Both the position numbers and the translations under genes were made by a program. A DNA stretch of 64,000 bases from a virus (lineage: Duplodnaviria; Caudoviricetes). Location of the stretch: IMG/VR virus record IMGVR_UViG_3300037808_002146; one strand, 5' to 3'. The notes beneath the pieces were generated by a model. It was not told the DNA's origin and did not search any database. It worked only from the letters and a program-made list of their open reading frames with translations. This document shows, one piece after another, positions 6,010-41,867 of the stretch (its first letter is position 1; each line of letters opens with the position of its first letter).

Positions 6010-6045
6010 GGTTTTCTCCTAATCTCCTTTTAAATATACTCTATA

Positions 6046-9000
6046 TTAGATTTCTGCACCAGCATTTGTGATAACAAAGTCAAGTGAAATAAATTCAACA
6101 GAACGGGTAGGTTGCAAGAATATCTTACCACGCAATGTGTTGTTCTCTACGTCCGTCTGTGTAGTTGTTGTTGCGTCAATCTTCACTAAGAATCTATCGA
6201 CACCCTGCTGTTGCTGAATCTGTCTTAAAATTGGATTCACCTGAGCAGAAAACCTCGCGAGGGTAGATTCCCTGTTTGGTTCAAAAATGAAGCTGTTTGC
6301 TACTTTTCTAACTCTTCTACGTAACTCAATAAGTAATCTACGAACATTAACTCTGTCCAGAGAACTTTGAGTTCTAAGTAATGTTTTTTGACCAAAAACT
6401 ACTACCCCTTCTGTATGTGGGAATGAAGTAAGCGGGTTAATATCAACATCATATAGAGAATCCAAATTATCTCTGTTTAACTTAACTTGTGTTTCAGTTA
6501 CATTGACCATTGCGCCTCTTGTAAAACCAGCTGGAGCAAACCAAGGATGTGCCAGTTGATCGTTAAGAGCGAAAGCCCCCAACACAGGAACCGAAGGCGG
6601 CACTTGGATGTTTTGCCCTGTTGATGGATCATTTAAGATAACATCTGGAAAATATGTAGCTGCGAAGCTTGTATCTAGAACTCGGTTGTTAAAACGAGTA
6701 ACTGTATTTGATACGCTAACTTTCTGTGCTGAACCTGTTACTACTGTATTTTCTGAATCATATACAATTGCATCCATGATATACATCGCATCAAATCTAG
6801 ATTCTACAGCGTCTATAGCTTTATCAGTTATTAGAGTTTGTCTAATTCCAGGAATTGCGAGTAATTGGATATCAACATCAGATCTCTCAGTTAAGACATC
6901 AATTGCTTTCATGTAAGTTGCTGCTGTAGCTCCGGCTTTACCACCTTGATTAGCTACATCAACAACTTCTCTCATAACCGCAACATCTGACAAAGCTGCC
7001 TTTTCTTTATCGAAAACTTCAGTACCATCAAAACCGCCAGCAACAAAAACATTGAACTTGAGATACCTTCTAACTGAACCTAAATCTAAGTCGGTAGTGG
7101 TGTTTAAGAACCTCGTCTTACTAGAAGCGGTGTTTCCATCAGCATCTAATATACTACTGTCTAGAACGCCTGTTCTCCTATACTCAGCTGCGGCCCATTG
7201 TGCGGAGTCTGGAACATCTGCTGCGGTTGTTACAACTTGAATATTTTCAAGGGTAAATTTATTATTATTGTAAGTATCTGCCGCAGAAGATCCTGTCCGG
7301 TGAGATATCAAAGACAAACTAGCTTGATCAAAATCCGGGAAGTACTTAGTCCAAGTGTTAGCGGAAGCTAAAGGTTGGCTATTTTTATTTGGTTCGTGAT
7401 AAAGATCATCAACTTCAAATTGGATACCCCAGTTTAACGAAGAAGCTACCCTCTTCTTTGGAACTTCTCCTACCGCTAAGTTTCTTCTAAGCGGTAATGG
7501 AGGTGCAACTATTTTTTCGTGTGCTAGTCCTGCTGCGTCTACAATCGTTGAGTCAACTGCAGCGAAAGTTACCGAGTTGTCTATATTAAGTTTTTGTGGT
7601 CCGCGGAACCCAAATGGAAGTGCGGAAGCATCCATTTTGCCATTTTCTACAGAATCGGCCATTTCCACTCTAATATATTTAGAGTTGTTTTCAAATCTGC
7701 CCGAAAGCGAAAGTTTTTGGCTACCAGCTCGTTTATCAAAATCATAAAATAATCTTTGATCACCTATGATTCGAGCAATATACCTCTCCGAGTTAGGGTT
7801 CAAGCTTAGCGAAGGAAACTTCTCTAAAACAACCTGTTCTCTATCGTTATCACTAAATCGTCTCACCATCAAATCGAAAGAACCATATCTGTTCTTATCC
7901 GATTGCGATCTTTTCAAGTTTTCAATAGAAACCTTATAGACCTCATTTCCTTGTGCGCCGTCGTCTAAAGAGTGAACCCTAAATAGCGGTTCATTATTTC
8001 CACCAAACTTTTGTGAAATCAAAGTTGGTGAAACAGCAGCTCTAAATCTATCGGAAAAGTTTTCCGTATTCGGCTTTGTAGCTGTACCTGCATTTCTGTT
8101 ACCGCTCGATGGTAGCAACATTGCAATATCATTTCCACTTTTGCCAGTAGAAGTTAGATATGGGTTCGTTGTGTTCATCGGAGATGCATATGTGCTAAAT
8201 ACGTCGTAATGAGCATATAAATAGTGACCTGATTCCTGAATGGCTGTTGGGTCTGTATTAAAAATATTTGCTATGTAATTTGAAGCTTGCGGATCAAAAG
8301 AAGCGGTGACTGCGTTAGGATGCGAAGTTGTGCTCTTGTGACCGTTAAGAATCATTACAAATTCTTGCTTGCCGTTTGTTAAGTCAACTTTACCAAGAGG
8401 TGATCCACCGTTCTCGATTCCAGAGATTGTTGGGTTATCTTCGAAAGGTGCAGTTGATCCAGCCAATTGTATAACAGTATTTGCGCCACCCTCAAAGTGA
8501 GAATCAACTGTAGCTTCTGCGGCCGTCATGGTTGTTTGTATTTCGGTATCGCCGGCAGATCCGCCTACAACTTGAGATAAGGTAACCATAGAACCAGAGG
8601 CGTGTGCAAATATTTTGCCAGCATGGCCGGTGGCTGCGTTAACAGCTCTTGCGAAATCAGTCGCCGCAACTGAGGCCCCGCCAACATCGCCTCTCTTAAA
8701 GTCCAAGCCATCTTCGTTGCCATTATTAACAGCGACGTAAGTTCGAGGAGTAGCTCCATCTGTTATTATAATATTATGTGCAGCAGTAACTGCTCCCAAG
8801 AAATTAATCTTTGCTTTAGCATTTGGTTTAGTTCCAATTTGTCCAACTGGAACGTTATTGCTAATTGCCGCCCGAGAAGCAACAAGCGATGGAACAACTC
8901 CAGAAGGATACATCATTACACCGCGTAAGACGTTTGCGTATCTTATGCCAGTTGCTGAATCCGCTAAACCCGATCCTGCTTCAGTAAAGATGTTTTCACC

Positions 9001-16916: not shown

Positions 16917-17465
16917 TTAAACAGCGATTGGAGCACGGCCAACATAAGTAACTGTCACTAAGACTTCAGGTGATCCTGTCATAGTAGATAGATCAGATTG
17001 AGAGGCAATAGAAATGAAAGTCTCTTCGGTGTCCGCTGGCTGATATGGACCTGATCCAACAATTGTGTCATGTAATCCGACACCAGCTGCTGAAAGGTCT
17101 AAGTCTCTATCAGTTCCAAGCACGTTAGTAGCTGTTGCAACACCTGCACCAGCAATTTCGGTACCTTGGACGGATAAGTCAAAAGCACGTGATGCACTGT
17201 GTACATGTACAGCGACCAACCCAGCTCCATCGCCGAGGTTTGTTGCTATTGCTGTAGTTGTACAAGCAAGGGAGAGGATAACAGATCCTGCAGGCAATTT
17301 ATATGCAGCAAGACCGGCAACATCTCCAGCGTCCCCAGTTGAAACACTAATTTTTTCTTGATGAACTCGGTAAGCTGTTACATCAGCATCTAAGTCTGAA
17401 ACTGCAAATCCGCGGCCAGTTGATTGTACTAGCCCTTTATCTCTTGACGATATAATTTTTGGCAT
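16917..17465 (-). CDS. Putative capsid decoration / minor virion protein
   Basis: Beta-rich 182 aa protein with LPAGSVIL motif, strong AAAGGAG RBS, between capsid and neck genes. The function is inferred. Confidence 0.5.
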   Translation of the reverse strand: MPKIISSRDKGLVQSTGRGFAVSDLDADVTAYRVHQEKISVSTGDAGDVAGLAAYKLPAGSVILSLACTTTAIATNLGDGAGLVAVHVHSASRAFDLSVQGTEIAGAGVATATNVLGTDRDLDLSAAGVGLHDTIVGSGPYQPADTEETFISIASQSDLSTMTGSPEVLVTVTYVGRAPIAV

Positions 17466-17537
17466 GATCTTTCTCCTTTTTTGTCTGCAAGATTCCGCAT
17501 CGCTGGCAGGGTCAGCTGATCAAATATGATGCGGGCC
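17466..17537 (-). ncRNA. Candidate cis-regulatory structured leader RNA (H-type pseudoknot-capable)
   Basis: GC-rich island in AT-rich DNA. P1 is CCGCATC/GATGCGG; loop CTGCCAG can pair with downstream CTTGCAG; followed by ACAAAAAAGGAG and the start codon. No family assigned. Confidence 0.45.
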
Positions 17538-17565
17538 TACTAATAATTATATAGAAAGAATGGAT

Positions 17566-17886
17566 TTACAAAAATAATTTGTTATTTATTGAAGTATCAA
17601 GATACAAAGCAAGCTTTTTGTTTTTCATATATGCTGCGTATGCGCTTAGCCTCTTCATAACTTCATCTTCGCCGGTGGAGGGAGATAACTTTAATGTTGC
17701 AATTTCAGATTTAAGATTTGCAATTTCTTCTCTCAAAGCTACAACTGAATTTGCAATTTGCTTTAAATCATCTTGGGTTACTTGCGCTGGTTTATTTGCT
17801 TCAGTTGCCTTGTTTACTTCAGTTGTCTTAATAGGTTTAGAAGCTTTAGTAGCAGTTAGAGTATTTGTCTTTCGAGTATTGGCCAT
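17566..17886 (-). CDS. Hypothetical coiled-coil protein (106 aa)
   Basis: ORF track; AAGGAGG RBS; heptad segment LKQIANSVVALREEIANLKSEIATL. Confidence 0.75.
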   Translation of the reverse strand: MANTRKTNTLTATKASKPIKTTEVNKATEANKPAQVTQDDLKQIANSVVALREEIANLKSEIATLKLSPSTGEDEVMKRLSAYAAYMKNKKLALYLDTSINNKLFL

Positions 17887-19610: not shown

Positions 19611-21497
19611 CTAGATAATGTTCATGTCCAAGCATGTAACAGTACCATAAAAGTCGGAACGAACCATCTTCTTACCATAGCGAGTCATAACACCCTTACG
19701 TGGGGTGAAATCCTCTGGTGCGAAGATTGTTGGTGTAACAATCAAAGGTACATATGGGGCATAAACATAACCAGTCTCTAAGTAGCTACTACCCTTGAAA
19801 CCAACAAGGATCTTGTGGCGTGGGAAGTACGGGTCTTTGTAAACCGTGAAACGGCTTGAAAGAGTACCAACCTTTTCGGCTCCAAGAACCATTGGGCTAG
19901 CAACTTGACCATCGCTATCGAGTGAGAGAGCTGGCTTGTAAAGAACGCTTGCTTCCATAACGGTAGCAACTTCAGGGCTAACAACAATAAAGTTACCAGC
20001 ACCACGGAGTGTCTTTCTGTGAATCTCATTTGAAACATCAATGATAGTCTCGACGAGAGTCTCATACCACTCGCGAACAGTACCAGTAAAAGCTGGTCCC
20101 GGGCGAAGTGAAGATGCTCTTGAAATTGCTGCGCCTGTACGCTTGTTAACAAAGTTACCTGGTGAACGTGACCAGAAAAAGTTAGCAGCGCCAGCCTGAT
20201 TAAGAAGATCGCCAAGAATTTCACGATCAATCTCGAGTGCAACCTGCTCAGAAAGAATCTGAGTAAGTTCAACTTCAGCATCAAGGCTGTGATATGCATT
20301 CAAATCCTGTGCAAGTTCTGGTGACCACTTAGCGCGGAGCTTACGTGTCTGAGCCACAACCGATACTGACTCAATCTTGATGTCAATCTCTGGAATATCA
20401 CTATCGGAGCCAACTGGAAAGCCTGACTCAAAAGCTGGTGAAACAATAGTTGATAAATCGTCTTCGTTAGTACCAGCAGCCTGGACGTATTCAACAGCAA
20501 GGTGCTGATCAGCTAAATCGCCTAAGTCGGCCGCGACAATAGTACCCGAGCCCTGTGCAACTATCATAAGGATGTGGGAGTAATCGGAAGCACTCGCAAA
20601 ATCAGGAGTAAGCTCAGTAGCATCCCATGATTTAACAAGTCTGTTCAAACGACGAACGTTGAGGCAACCTTCACCAGCCTGAACAGCTGTCCCTGGATCG
20701 ACTAAAGGTGTGTTTTGAAGGGCTGTAGCTTCAAAAACAGTGACTTCACGAAGTAAGCTGACGTCAATGTCTGGAAAACACTCCTTTGGAATAGCCATGA
20801 GTGTAAAACCAGTACCACCTTCAATCAAAGACTCAATCTGTGGATCATGGCTGTAAAATGCCGCGTGAGCAGTCGTCAACTTCAAGTTTGCAGCTGTTTC
20901 GCCGTCAGTTGCTGCAAGACCAGGCTTGAAGACATTACCGATAGCAAGAGTATTCAAAGTTGCGTTAGAGGCTGTGCCAACATTCTTTTTACGAGCTCGT
21001 GAATAACCAGAACCAGCAAGGTCATACTGACCACCAACTGCTGAGGCTGCGCCATTCTTGCCAGGGTTAACTGGCTGGCCGTAAATTGAATTTTGGTCAC
21101 CATCATAAGCATTTTGCACCTTTGAGCCATTACCACCAAGGGTTGTACCATAAGTATAATCGAGGTAGAAGAGCAGTCCTGATGGAAGACTCATTGGCTG
21201 AATTGAAACTAGCTCATTAGCAATTAATGAACCGAATACGCGACGAACGATTGGAAATGCAATGTTCGTAAAACCACGAATGTCAGAGCTAGCTGGTGTA
21301 CCACCACCAAGGCTTGACGACTCGCGAAGGGCTTGACCTGCTTGGTTCTCCAAGAGGGTAGCCATGTTTTCGCGGTGGACACCTTCCATGCCGCGAAGGA
21401 GGCCAGTACGACCCCACTTTTCTAACAGTCGACGATTACCCTGGCCAACATTACGTGCCTTGATACCTTCCGTCAACGTATCTAATGAAAAACTCAT
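19611..21497 (-). CDS. gp23: Major capsid protein (T4 gp23-like, HK97 fold)
   Basis: PIVRRVF, VSIQPMSLPSGLLFYLDY, AQTRKLRAKWSPELAQDL, AYHSLDAEVELT, EIDREI, YVYAPYVPL and PRKGVMTRY. Confidence 0.96.
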   Translation of the reverse strand: MSFSLDTLTEGIKARNVGQGNRRLLEKWGRTGLLRGMEGVHRENMATLLENQAGQALRESSSLGGGTPASSDIRGFTNIAFPIVRRVFGSLIANELVSIQPMSLPSGLLFYLDYTYGTTLGGNGSKVQNAYDGDQNSIYGQPVNPGKNGAASAVGGQYDLAGSGYSRARKKNVGTASNATLNTLAIGNVFKPGLAATDGETAANLKLTTAHAAFYSHDPQIESLIEGGTGFTLMAIPKECFPDIDVSLLREVTVFEATALQNTPLVDPGTAVQAGEGCLNVRRLNRLVKSWDATELTPDFASASDYSHILMIVAQGSGTIVAADLGDLADQHLAVEYVQAAGTNEDDLSTIVSPAFESGFPVGSDSDIPEIDIKIESVSVVAQTRKLRAKWSPELAQDLNAYHSLDAEVELTQILSEQVALEIDREILGDLLNQAGAANFFWSRSPGNFVNKRTGAAISRASSLRPGPAFTGTVREWYETLVETIIDVSNEIHRKTLRGAGNFIVVSPEVATVMEASVLYKPALSLDSDGQVASPMVLGAEKVGTLSSRFTVYKDPYFPRHKILVGFKGSSYLETGYVYAPYVPLIVTPTIFAPEDFTPRKGVMTRYGKKMVRSDFYGTVTCLDMNII

Positions 21498-41018: not shown

Positions 41019-41777
41019 TCAAGTAGCGTCATTGCTATATTTTAATGGTAAAGTGATCTGGTGTTGAATGCCTGTCAATAAACCAGTTACAACTGCTACT
41101 GTTGTAATAATTCCAGATGAATCTCCAAAAGTATTAAAGACTGTTTGATTTAAAGTTTGTTTCACTTTAAATGTTAGGCTCAAGCTTGGCGAATTTTTAA
41201 CGCCGCCGGCGGACGCTGCCACTCTGTATGTTGCCATTTGATCTCTTTCGGAGATATAAGAAGCCGGTAAAACACCAGCACCGGAGGAAACTTCTAGAAA
41301 TCTGCTTGAAGCTTTAACCATGAATACGGATTCTTGCATATCAATAGGTATAGCACCATCTTGCTGAACCCTGTTTCCTGTCCCAATTCTTTGGGAAAGA
41401 TTAACTGTAGCTGGGGTTTGGCCAACTCTCGTTAGAGCGTTAGATGTACTTATATTAGTCGAAGAAGAGTTATCAGCTATTGTGTTTACTAAACTAGGAA
41501 TAAAAGTTTCAACTTGAGACGACATACTGATTAATTTATATTTAAGCCCTAAGTTAGAGCTAGTTTGAGCCTCGAATATTGGAGTGTTTTTCTCTATCTT
41601 CTCTCTGCCAACTGTTAACCCAAATTTCTTAATTATAGAATAATCAATCTCATCATCGCCTAAAGCGAATTTTACAATTGAAAAAGAACCATCGTTTTGA
41701 GACAGCCTCTTTCTACCCAAATCAGTTAGAACAGCATCTACTATAATATTGTTCGTGCTGTGATCTAAGAATCCCAT
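41019..41777 (-). CDS. Putative baseplate / fibre-attachment protein
   Basis: N-terminal DAVLTDLGRKRLSQ...IVKFALGDDEIDY resembles tail-fibre N-terminal (P2 gpH-like) motifs; AGGAG RBS. Confidence 0.55.
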   Translation of the reverse strand: MGFLDHSTNNIIVDAVLTDLGRKRLSQNDGSFSIVKFALGDDEIDYSIIKKFGLTVGREKIEKNTPIFEAQTSSNLGLKYKLISMSSQVETFIPSLVNTIADNSSSTNISTSNALTRVGQTPATVNLSQRIGTGNRVQQDGAIPIDMQESVFMVKASSRFLEVSSGAGVLPASYISERDQMATYRVAASAGGVKNSPSLSLTFKVKQTLNQTVFNTFGDSSGIITTVAVVTGLLTGIQHQITLPLKYSNDAT

Positions 41778-41867
41778 ATCTTTCTCCTGATTTATACTTT
41801 TTAAATATACTTAGCAGCAAAAAAAAGTAAAATTTATTATGGCAAGCCACAAGGCCAAAAAAATCTA

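Follow-up and report, generated by a model that had tools for sequence, protein, structure and literature searches.

A covarying double-pseudoknot leader RNA ahead of a putative capsid decoration operon in uncultured marine T4-like phages

The window analysed here, a stretch of 64,000 nucleotides from the IMG/VR virus record IMGVR_UViG_3300037808_002146, carries on its minus strand a GC-rich segment directly in front of the gene for a 182-aa protein. A preliminary description, which quoted the minus-strand sequence of positions 17466-17550 exactly, had regarded the segment as a leader RNA with pseudoknot potential and had suggested that it might be a riboswitch-like or autoregulatory element. 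The locus thus raises the question of whether the segment is a genuine structured RNA, how it folds and what it might do to the gene behind it. We addressed the question by analysing the gene context, by collecting related leaders and testing their pairing, and by comparing the resulting fold with known RNA elements.

Gene context of the leader

The minus strand of the window holds the structural module of a distant T4-like myovirus, in which a gp23-type capsid gene, a 530-aa gene, a 106-aa gene, the leader, the 182-aa gene and the gp13-like and gp15-like neck genes follow one another in this order. The closest cultured relatives of the capsid protein, at 35-44% identity, belong to Flavobacterium phage immuto and Microcystis phage Mel-JY01. 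Contigs related to the window are marine, and the related IMG/VR records measure 133-188 kb with a completeness rating of 52-67%. One of the five records (G002, 188 kb, the record of locus L009) is classed as a provirus by IMG/VR and the other four as linear; its flanks, if bacterial, could hint at the host. The features that frame the leader are the following:

19611-21497, minus strand: gp23-type major capsid gene (Pfam Gp23, E = 2.5e-77)
17566-17886, minus strand: upstream 106-aa ORF, with a Lys/Thr-rich N-terminus and a coiled coil
17544-17553, minus strand: promoter-like -10 motif TATATAATTA, recognised from its sequence
16917-17465, minus strand: gene of 182 aa presumed to be controlled, with an N-terminal arm MPK..KGLVQ.G.G and a jelly-roll beta-sandwich

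As had been noted in the preliminary description, the leader abuts both the Shine-Dalgarno sequence GGAG (17473-17476) and the ATG of the 182-aa ORF (17465-17463). An AF2 model of the 182-aa protein (pLDDT 78) left the first 25 residues, which are the conserved ones, disordered and folded the remainder into a jelly-roll beta-sandwich. The best PDB matches, with TM scores of 0.43-0.61, were the Pam1 cyanophage capsid chain H, the trimeric cement protein of Helicobacter phage KHP40 and the capsid chain J of Ralstonia phage GP4, followed by jelly-roll coat proteins of small viruses, all the matches being weak to moderate. Searches against BFVD returned uncharacterised phage jelly rolls and collagen-repeat fibre heads, and no Pfam or PHROG family was assigned to the protein. 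Judging from the model, the product is probably a capsid cement/decoration or fibre-head protein, in line with the decoration gene proposed earlier, a label that is itself unproven.

In all the phages that carry it, the element heads a short operon located just upstream of the gp13-like neck gene. The operon consists of one to three tandem genes of 111-311 aa whose products start with MP(K/Q/N/S/L/V).....KGLVQ..G.G and then diverge fully, and a small Lys/Ala/Thr-rich protein is encoded before, first in or after these MPK genes, depending on the phage. In the MPK arrays (L010:8890-9225 region, L094, L111, L076) the proteins have a conserved arm of some 17 residues in common at the N-terminus, and often a W-x-V/C motif at the C-terminus, the middle portions being unrelated; the arrays are a hypervariable capsid-surface cassette in the interval between capsid and neck genes. 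Later paralogues in an array start after 10-30 nt and have no element of their own. The leader is nearly invariant, whereas the proteins behind it, with lengths of 111 to 192 aa, diverge past their first 17 or so residues. The major capsid gene of the same phage has no such leader.

The genes upstream of the element vary as well. Proteins resembling the 106-aa ORF of the window in composition are placed after the element or after the MPK genes in other phages; no homology was detected between the window's 106-aa ORF and the small Lys-rich proteins found behind the element elsewhere. In subfamilies B and C and in L091 (L034, L042, L046, L091), the gene upstream of the element encodes 253-271 aa, starts with MIISP(T/S)KGF(V/A)FFKP(M/L)K(T/V)AGSS(V/I)E and stands in the place of the kinase-like and small basic genes of the window. 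In D-type phages (L089, L093, L094, L097, L102, L111, L115, L116) a well-conserved protein of 77-109 aa, beginning MQLSPEQVQS(I/V)N(I/V)LLSAVQVAQRRGAFSLQDA, is always encoded directly upstream of the element; before it stands the gene of an Arg-rich protein (about 75 aa). Elsewhere in the window, late genes (41778-41850 and 6010-6045, minus strand) carry plain and short leaders in which GTATATTTAAAA recurs near the Shine-Dalgarno sequence, and the ATG at 41777 is preceded by the same GGAGAAAGAU context.

The promoter-like motif described earlier directly before the leader is -10-like, and its distance from the leader is conserved. Across three otherwise different upstream contexts the spacing is fixed as ATAATTA-N5-AGGCCC or TATATA-N5-AGGCCC, the variants TATAATTA, CATAATTA or TAATATATA being followed by five bases and then by AGGCCC. 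A consensus scan at the site detected neither a sigma-70 promoter with a -35 element nor a terminator-like hairpin with a T-run, and a -10 motif of this kind resembles, by analogy, a T4 late promoter. By the same analogy transcription probably begins near 17538, at the A of AGGCCC, five bases after the motif and 27 nt downstream of the end of the 106-aa ORF. A T run followed by GTAA (TTTTTGTAA) is also conserved upstream of the -10-like motif (17560-17575 in the window, and in L008, L009, L089 and L093), lying about 14 nt before it in the window's subfamily and directly abutting it in the D-type.

A contig from a seawater metatranscriptome spans 17245-17525 with zero mismatches and joins the leader to the coding sequence, and an RNA-library contig of a relative, from a second study, does likewise; both might stem from DNA carry-over. 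The two contigs end at 17525 and 17524, and the upstream ORF is covered by none of the RNA-library contigs. These ends were considered as a transcript 5' end and rejected, since they coincide with the first variable columns upstream of an invariant block, where assembly graphs branch.

Copies of the leader and its covarying helices

The untranslated leader comprises about 75 bases and four helices backed by compensatory changes, namely the stems P1 and P2 and the pseudoknot helices PK-a and PK-b. Its parts in the window are listed from 5' to 3':

17535-17539, minus strand: 5' single-stranded UAGGC, with AGGC invariant in all copies (alignments A1 and A3)
17528-17534, minus strand: P1 5' strand CCGCAUC, paired with 17495-17501
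17517-17527, minus strand: J1/2 bulge AUAUUUGAUCA, in which UGAUC (17518-17522) is the PK-b 5' strand
17502-17516, minus strand: P2 hairpin, made of GCUG (17513-17516), the 7-nt loop ACCCUGC (17506-17512) and CAGC (17502-17505)
17506-17509, minus strand: PK-a 5' strand CUGC within the P2 loop, paired with GCAG
17495-17501, minus strand: P1 3' strand GAUGCGG, identified by covariation
17489-17494, minus strand: linker AAUCUU, nearly invariant (AAUCAU in the other subfamily)
17485-17488, minus strand: PK-a 3' strand GCAG, six bases 3' of P1, paired with the loop CUGC
17470-17484, minus strand: linker ACAAAAAAGGAGAAA, with a conserved ACAA, a variable A-rich stretch and the Shine-Dalgarno GGAG at 17473-17476
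17465-17469, minus strand: PK-b 3' strand GAUCA, position 17465 being the A of the start codon

Folding of the window leader alone returned a minimum free energy of -24.4 kcal/mol (z = -1.68), with 11 of 200 shuffled sequences equally good, which is not better than chance. As the single-sequence fold is unremarkable, the case for structure is a comparative one.

Related leaders were collected from viral and metagenome contigs by pattern scans and covariance models. Fifteen metagenome homologues of the 182-aa protein were found, and the contig of the one with 82% identity (L001) carries the same leader, with an identical loop and the stem CCGCAUC/GAUGCGG changed to CCACACC/GGUGUGG. A protein-pattern scan of viral contigs derived from the single 182-aa protein gave no match. 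Scanning viral contigs, and in one case metagenome contigs, with sequence patterns provided 17 distinct leader copies (alignment A1), and the covariance model R1 built from these detected divergent copies, some of them before the preceding gene. Scanning with the tail of the divergent copies produced 25 further loci, all genuine, and two later scans contributed one more variant (two loci); the scan AGGCCC-N14-18-CAGCTGACCC returned mostly chance matches among the matches listed. Overall, about 57 copies, 36 of them distinct, were recovered from viral and marine metagenome contigs.

The element occurs once in the 64-kb window and once or twice in each of the five viral records (133-188 kb). In L007 two copies (6860-6933 and 7599-7672) lie 740 nt apart, each before a different MPK..KGLVQ paralogue, and the upstream copy, the most divergent found, shows compensatory changes in P2, PK-a and PK-b. 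The 19-base degenerate core pattern had no match in the cellular genomes of 185,579 prokaryote species (one genome each), and neither the leader nor the 182-aa protein had a DNA or protein match among 50,697 records of cultured phages.

Pairing was evaluated on the 34 distinct rows of alignment A3, in which the window coordinate equals 17540 minus the alignment column and P1 corresponds to columns 6-12 with 39-45, P2 to 24-27 with 35-38 and PK-a to 31-34 with 52-55. Standard pairs occupied 99.8% of the cells of these three helices, as compared with 24-44% when the partners were slid by one to three columns. Both sides had changed in 10 of the 15 pairs, and none of 500 shuffles matched any of the five measures used. 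The perfect 7-bp P1 seen in the window by the preliminary description is thus present in homologues as well and covaries, with both sides changed in four of its seven pairs and 99.6% of cells paired. In P2 three of the four pairs had changed on both sides and all cells were paired, the variants including GUCG/CGAC, CUUG/CGAG and ACCG/CGGU. GCUG/CAGC, previously described as an alternative helix, is therefore the constitutive, covarying P2.

The PK-a strands occur as CUGC:GCAG, CCGC:GCGG, CCCA:UGGG and, found later, CCAC:GUGG. An alignment artefact can be dismissed, since the PK-a columns lie outside the structure of the covariance model; the covariation of PK-a consists of four sequence versions and that of PK-b of three, hence of few independent lineages. 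The loop-to-tail pseudoknot had been drawn earlier with seven positions, of which the four CUGC:GCAG pairs are upheld; the CAG:CUU part makes use of the P2 3' strand and is not conserved. The palindrome TCAGCTGA noted in the loop fared no better, being lost in relatives (TCAGTCGA). A second hairpin predicted by RNAalifold, AUCUU/AAGAU, was discarded as a competitor of PK-b that is, moreover, disrupted by an A opposite A in the second L007 copy and missing from the AAUCAU subfamily. Both strands of a possible P1 extension, UAGG/CUUG, are invariant and provide evidence neither way.

While the stems drift, about 11 unpaired bases are invariant, namely AGGC at the 5' end, CA before P2, the A that opens the loop, AAUC.U following P1 and ACAA following PK-a. 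Moreover, 33 cells hold G.U pairs that would read as A.C mismatches on the opposite strand; being strand-specific, they indicate that selection acts on the sense RNA.

These data bear on the idea that the segment has no RNA function and is purely a DNA-level recombination linker, a conserved promoter-leader cassette for swapping decoration genes in the manner of the PeSL cassettes of T4-type phages. Sequence identity does fall sharply on either side of the leader, the tandem copies in L007 stand before different paralogues, and the number and kind of downstream genes differ between phages, all of which would suit such a linker. However, the compensatory changes with strand-specific G.U intermediates reveal selection on RNA pairing, the element is single-copy instead of dispersed, and it has no terminator-like tail. 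Recombination cannot be the sole explanation because covariation occurs at the RNA level, and we regard this idea as the least credible of those considered; a role as homology arm in cassette swapping may nevertheless coexist with an RNA function.

Pairing at the start codon and a proposed translational gate

The second pseudoknot, PK-b, was absent from the preliminary description. Here the 3' end of the bulge pairs with the bases immediately before or inside the start codon. Every copy was parsed for PK-b by fixed offsets from AGGCCC and GGAAUC, and all 34 distinct copies retained the five core pairs (UGAUC:GAUCA, AUAAC:GUUAU or UAAUC:GAUUA). When the partners were permuted between sequences, 70 +/- 5% were paired, with a maximum of 85%. 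The complete versions are UGAUC:GAUCA, in which the last A is that of AUG, UUGAUC:GAUCAA, UAUAAC:GUUAUA, CAUAAC:GUUAUG, in which the whole AUG is paired, UAUAAUC:GAUUAUG and UAUGAUC:GAUCAUG. The pairing moves together with the start codon, whose exact position varies (GAUCAug, GUUAUG, GUUAUAug, GAUUAUG), and in most copies A, AU or the whole AUG lies inside PK-b. In subfamilies B and C the helix stops 3-5 nt short of AUG and instead takes in the final G of the Shine-Dalgarno sequence.

The subfamilies also differ in the linker that holds the Shine-Dalgarno sequence. In the window's subfamily the linker is A-rich and unpaired. The linker of the larger, D-type subfamily exceeds it by 12-18 nt and can fold into a weak hairpin that takes up the Shine-Dalgarno sequence itself (GGAGGAA or GUGAGGAA), with UUUAUCC or UUUAUCAC as the respective partner. 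In the D-type copies L087-L111, with tail AAUCAUGCGG, the spacer has A in place of U and the element thereby gains an internal AUG, which opens the mini-ORF MRTSLS-stop in some copies and is in frame with the main ORF in others (MRTSLSEKEEVMP...). This internal AUG has no clear Shine-Dalgarno sequence upstream and is probably incidental.

On the basis of the comparative sequence data, we propose that, in an uncultured marine T4-like myovirus, the segment serves as 5' untranslated leader to the late-transcribed decoration operon and acts in cis to gate translation initiation, a reading to which we assign a probability of roughly 60%. The transcript would begin at about 17538 after the T4-late-like motif and fold into a compact, four-helix nested double pseudoknot. 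The two pseudoknots would close off the A-rich linker with the Shine-Dalgarno sequence, PK-b taking up the start codon, and in the larger subfamily the weak extra hairpin would also pair the Shine-Dalgarno sequence. In this closed state the fold would hold back 30S binding and thereby govern the level or the timing at which the operon's first gene is translated. The operon would encode one to three jelly-roll virion proteins, hypervariable in sequence, and in some cases a small Lys-rich protein.

The gate would presumably be worked by a factor common to these phages or their hosts. We favour a shared factor over autoregulation because some 11 unpaired bases never vary and the leader stands before proteins that are unrelated to each other. 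Control by the encoded protein, as previously suggested, is accordingly unlikely, the proteins behind the invariant leader being hypervariable and of two unrelated kinds. Within the gating reading, a phage or host protein is the foremost candidate for operating the gate, at a little under even odds; action with no factor at all, the knot serving as 5' stabiliser and context insulator, is appreciably less probable, and a small molecule less probable again. PK-b consists of 5-7 AU-rich pairs, and as a bare duplex amounts to -2 to -6 kcal/mol. A ribosome may be able to open so weak a helix unaided, and the effect may be small, kinetic or constitutive. Furthermore, one would hardly expect repression of a structural gene that is required at high copy number.

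According to another explanation, the leader is a constitutive stabiliser and insulator at the 5' end. The knot would shield a heavily used late mRNA from 5'-end-dependent RNases and would present the Shine-Dalgarno sequence in an open A-rich loop to whichever cassette follows, with no trans-acting factor. The fold begins about 4 nt from the predicted 5' end, the Shine-Dalgarno sequence is unpaired in the window's subfamily, and PK-b is weak enough to be melted by the ribosome; a self-contained leader would also be useful where the downstream genes are swapped and hypervariable. Nevertheless, 11 invariant unpaired bases and two pseudoknots exceed what a protective hairpin needs, the larger subfamily pairs both the Shine-Dalgarno sequence and the AUG, against efficient initiation, and no comparable leader precedes the major capsid gene of the same phage. 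We consider this explanation a minority one, rather unlikely, and retain the translational gate as the preferred reading.

Comparison with known RNA elements

Rfam searches of 1.2 kb around the locus, and of the 116-nt leader alone with the laxest filters, returned nothing relevant at E <= 10, including the SAM-II/V, HDV and drz models. The expectation that the leader belongs to no known family is borne out by these searches, and that its homologues should have conserved, covarying stems by the alignments described above. The motif is very likely new, since neither Rfam nor the cultured phages and cellular genomes searched contained a counterpart. More than 10,000 candidate structured RNAs have been catalogued from IMG/VR, and the motif may already stand unnamed among them (PMC10690425).

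Small pseudoknot riboswitches such as SAM-II, SAM-V and preQ1-II resemble the element in that a short leader places its 3' tail, by or including the ribosome-binding site, in a pseudoknot with a hairpin loop, and in that junction bases are conserved and stems covary. The element differs from them in the second pseudoknot formed from an internal bulge, in its restriction to phage virion genes and in the absence of cellular copies. A phage-specific riboswitch, in which a small molecule would stabilise the double pseudoknot and shut or open translation of the decoration operon, would agree with the size of the element, with its conserved junction bases among drifting stems, with the ribosome-binding site in a pseudoknot as in SAM-II and preQ1-II, and with the lack of an Rfam family. 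It is improbable in view of the 185,579 prokaryote species without a copy and of the controlled genes, which are virion structural genes with no metabolic link. The particular likeness to SAM-II/SAM-V put forward earlier was not confirmed: the U-rich loop start and the A tract, on which it was based, are the variable features, changing in length and sequence, and no association with methionine, SAM or sulfur metabolism genes was observed, since the genes behind the element always encode jelly-roll virion proteins or small Lys-rich proteins and lie beside the neck gene.

An architectural parallel is provided by HDV-like ribozymes. The strands of the element follow one another as P1 5', PK-b 5', P2 hairpin, P1 3', six-base spacer, PK-a 3', Shine-Dalgarno linker and PK-b 3' at the AUG, which is the same nested double-pseudoknot order as P1, P2, P3, P1', P1.1', optional P4 and P2' in HDV-like ribozymes. 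That topology forms two side-by-side stacks (PMC13635239). A 7-bp P1, a 7-nt P3 loop, a dispensable P4 and presence in tailed phages are likewise shared; minimal forms lacking P4 occur in phages (PMC10879173), as do 'theta' forms (PMC10879173, PMC13635239). A cytosine at J4/2 is required for catalysis in HDV-like ribozymes (PMC10879173), whereas the corresponding position of the element has none, GAAA, GGAA or AGGA preceding the PK-b 3' strand in 34 of 34 copies. In addition, all 34 copies open P1 with a C-G pair instead of the cleavage-site G.U; the counterpart of the two-pair P1.1 has 4 bp, involves the 3' half of the loop and follows a conserved 6-nt spacer after P1; and the P2 3' strand corresponds to the start-codon region and the P4 position to the Shine-Dalgarno sequence. 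On sequence grounds, the element shares the HDV-like topology but is not a member of the family.

Two further explanations derive from this parallel. The first is a divergent HDV-like self-cleaving ribozyme, which would trim the first bases to leave a 5'-OH mRNA or would excise the operon from read-through transcripts. The identical strand order, the 7-bp P1 and 7-nt P3 loop, the loop-to-tail helix at P1.1, the optional P4 and the described phage forms without P4 (PMC10879173, PMC13635239) speak in its favour; given the invariant C-G pair, the missing cytosine, the differently built P1.1 counterpart and the absence of any HDV or drz model match even at E <= 10, we judge it very improbable. The second, a speculative and rather unlikely proposal, is that phages have re-used the HDV-type nested double-pseudoknot fold, either as a translational gate operated by a ligand or protein, with P2 at the start codon and the P4 position at the Shine-Dalgarno sequence, or as a ribozyme whose active site would be new and which would remove the triphosphate end of a late mRNA. 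If true, either re-use would represent a new functional RNA class timing the synthesis of capsid surface proteins.

At the DNA level, the PeSL cassettes of T4-type phages consist of a sigma-70-like early promoter and a terminator stem-loop, with many copies spread through hyperplastic regions (PMC2839356, PMC4122927). They resemble the element as a short conserved block of promoter and stem-loop before variable T4-like ORFs and as a plausible point of genetic exchange. In contrast, the element has a -10-only, late-like motif and no U-tail, occurs in one or two copies at a fixed place between head and neck genes, and has pseudoknots reaching the start codon.

The finding is of interest in several respects. 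All four helices, two of which form pseudoknots, are strongly supported by the sequence comparison. The start codon is tied into the fold, and the leader is far better conserved than the proteins behind it; an HDV-like architecture without the catalytic residues bears on the origin and re-use of such folds. The analysis also delivers a defined 75-nt RNA that can be probed for ligands, proteins and cleavage, a marker by which a large clade of uncultured marine T4-like phages can be recognised, and a handle on the hypervariable capsid-surface gene cassette of that clade.

Precedents for the translational gate that we favour are found among phage operators. Textbook phage operators act on replication genes, the Mu Com-mom hairpin is another phage translational operator with a structured element at or before the start codon, and to our knowledge hardly any structured RNA is known to control the late, structural genes of DNA phages. 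Similarly to the element, the T4 gene 32 leader pseudoknot and the T4 RegA and gp43 operators place a structured element at or before a phage start codon, where a protein sets translation (PMC3014915). The gene 32 leader in particular has a 5' pseudoknot followed by an unstructured A-rich run to the ribosome-binding site. Searches for regA (PF01818) gave no match in the five partial viral records, nor in the control genomes. The element differs from these operators in preceding a jelly-roll virion gene instead of a gene for a single-stranded-DNA-binding or replication protein, and in folding as a double pseudoknot. An RNA leader that occludes the initiation region is thus of a known kind; its architecture and its target, a late capsid-surface operon, are unusual.
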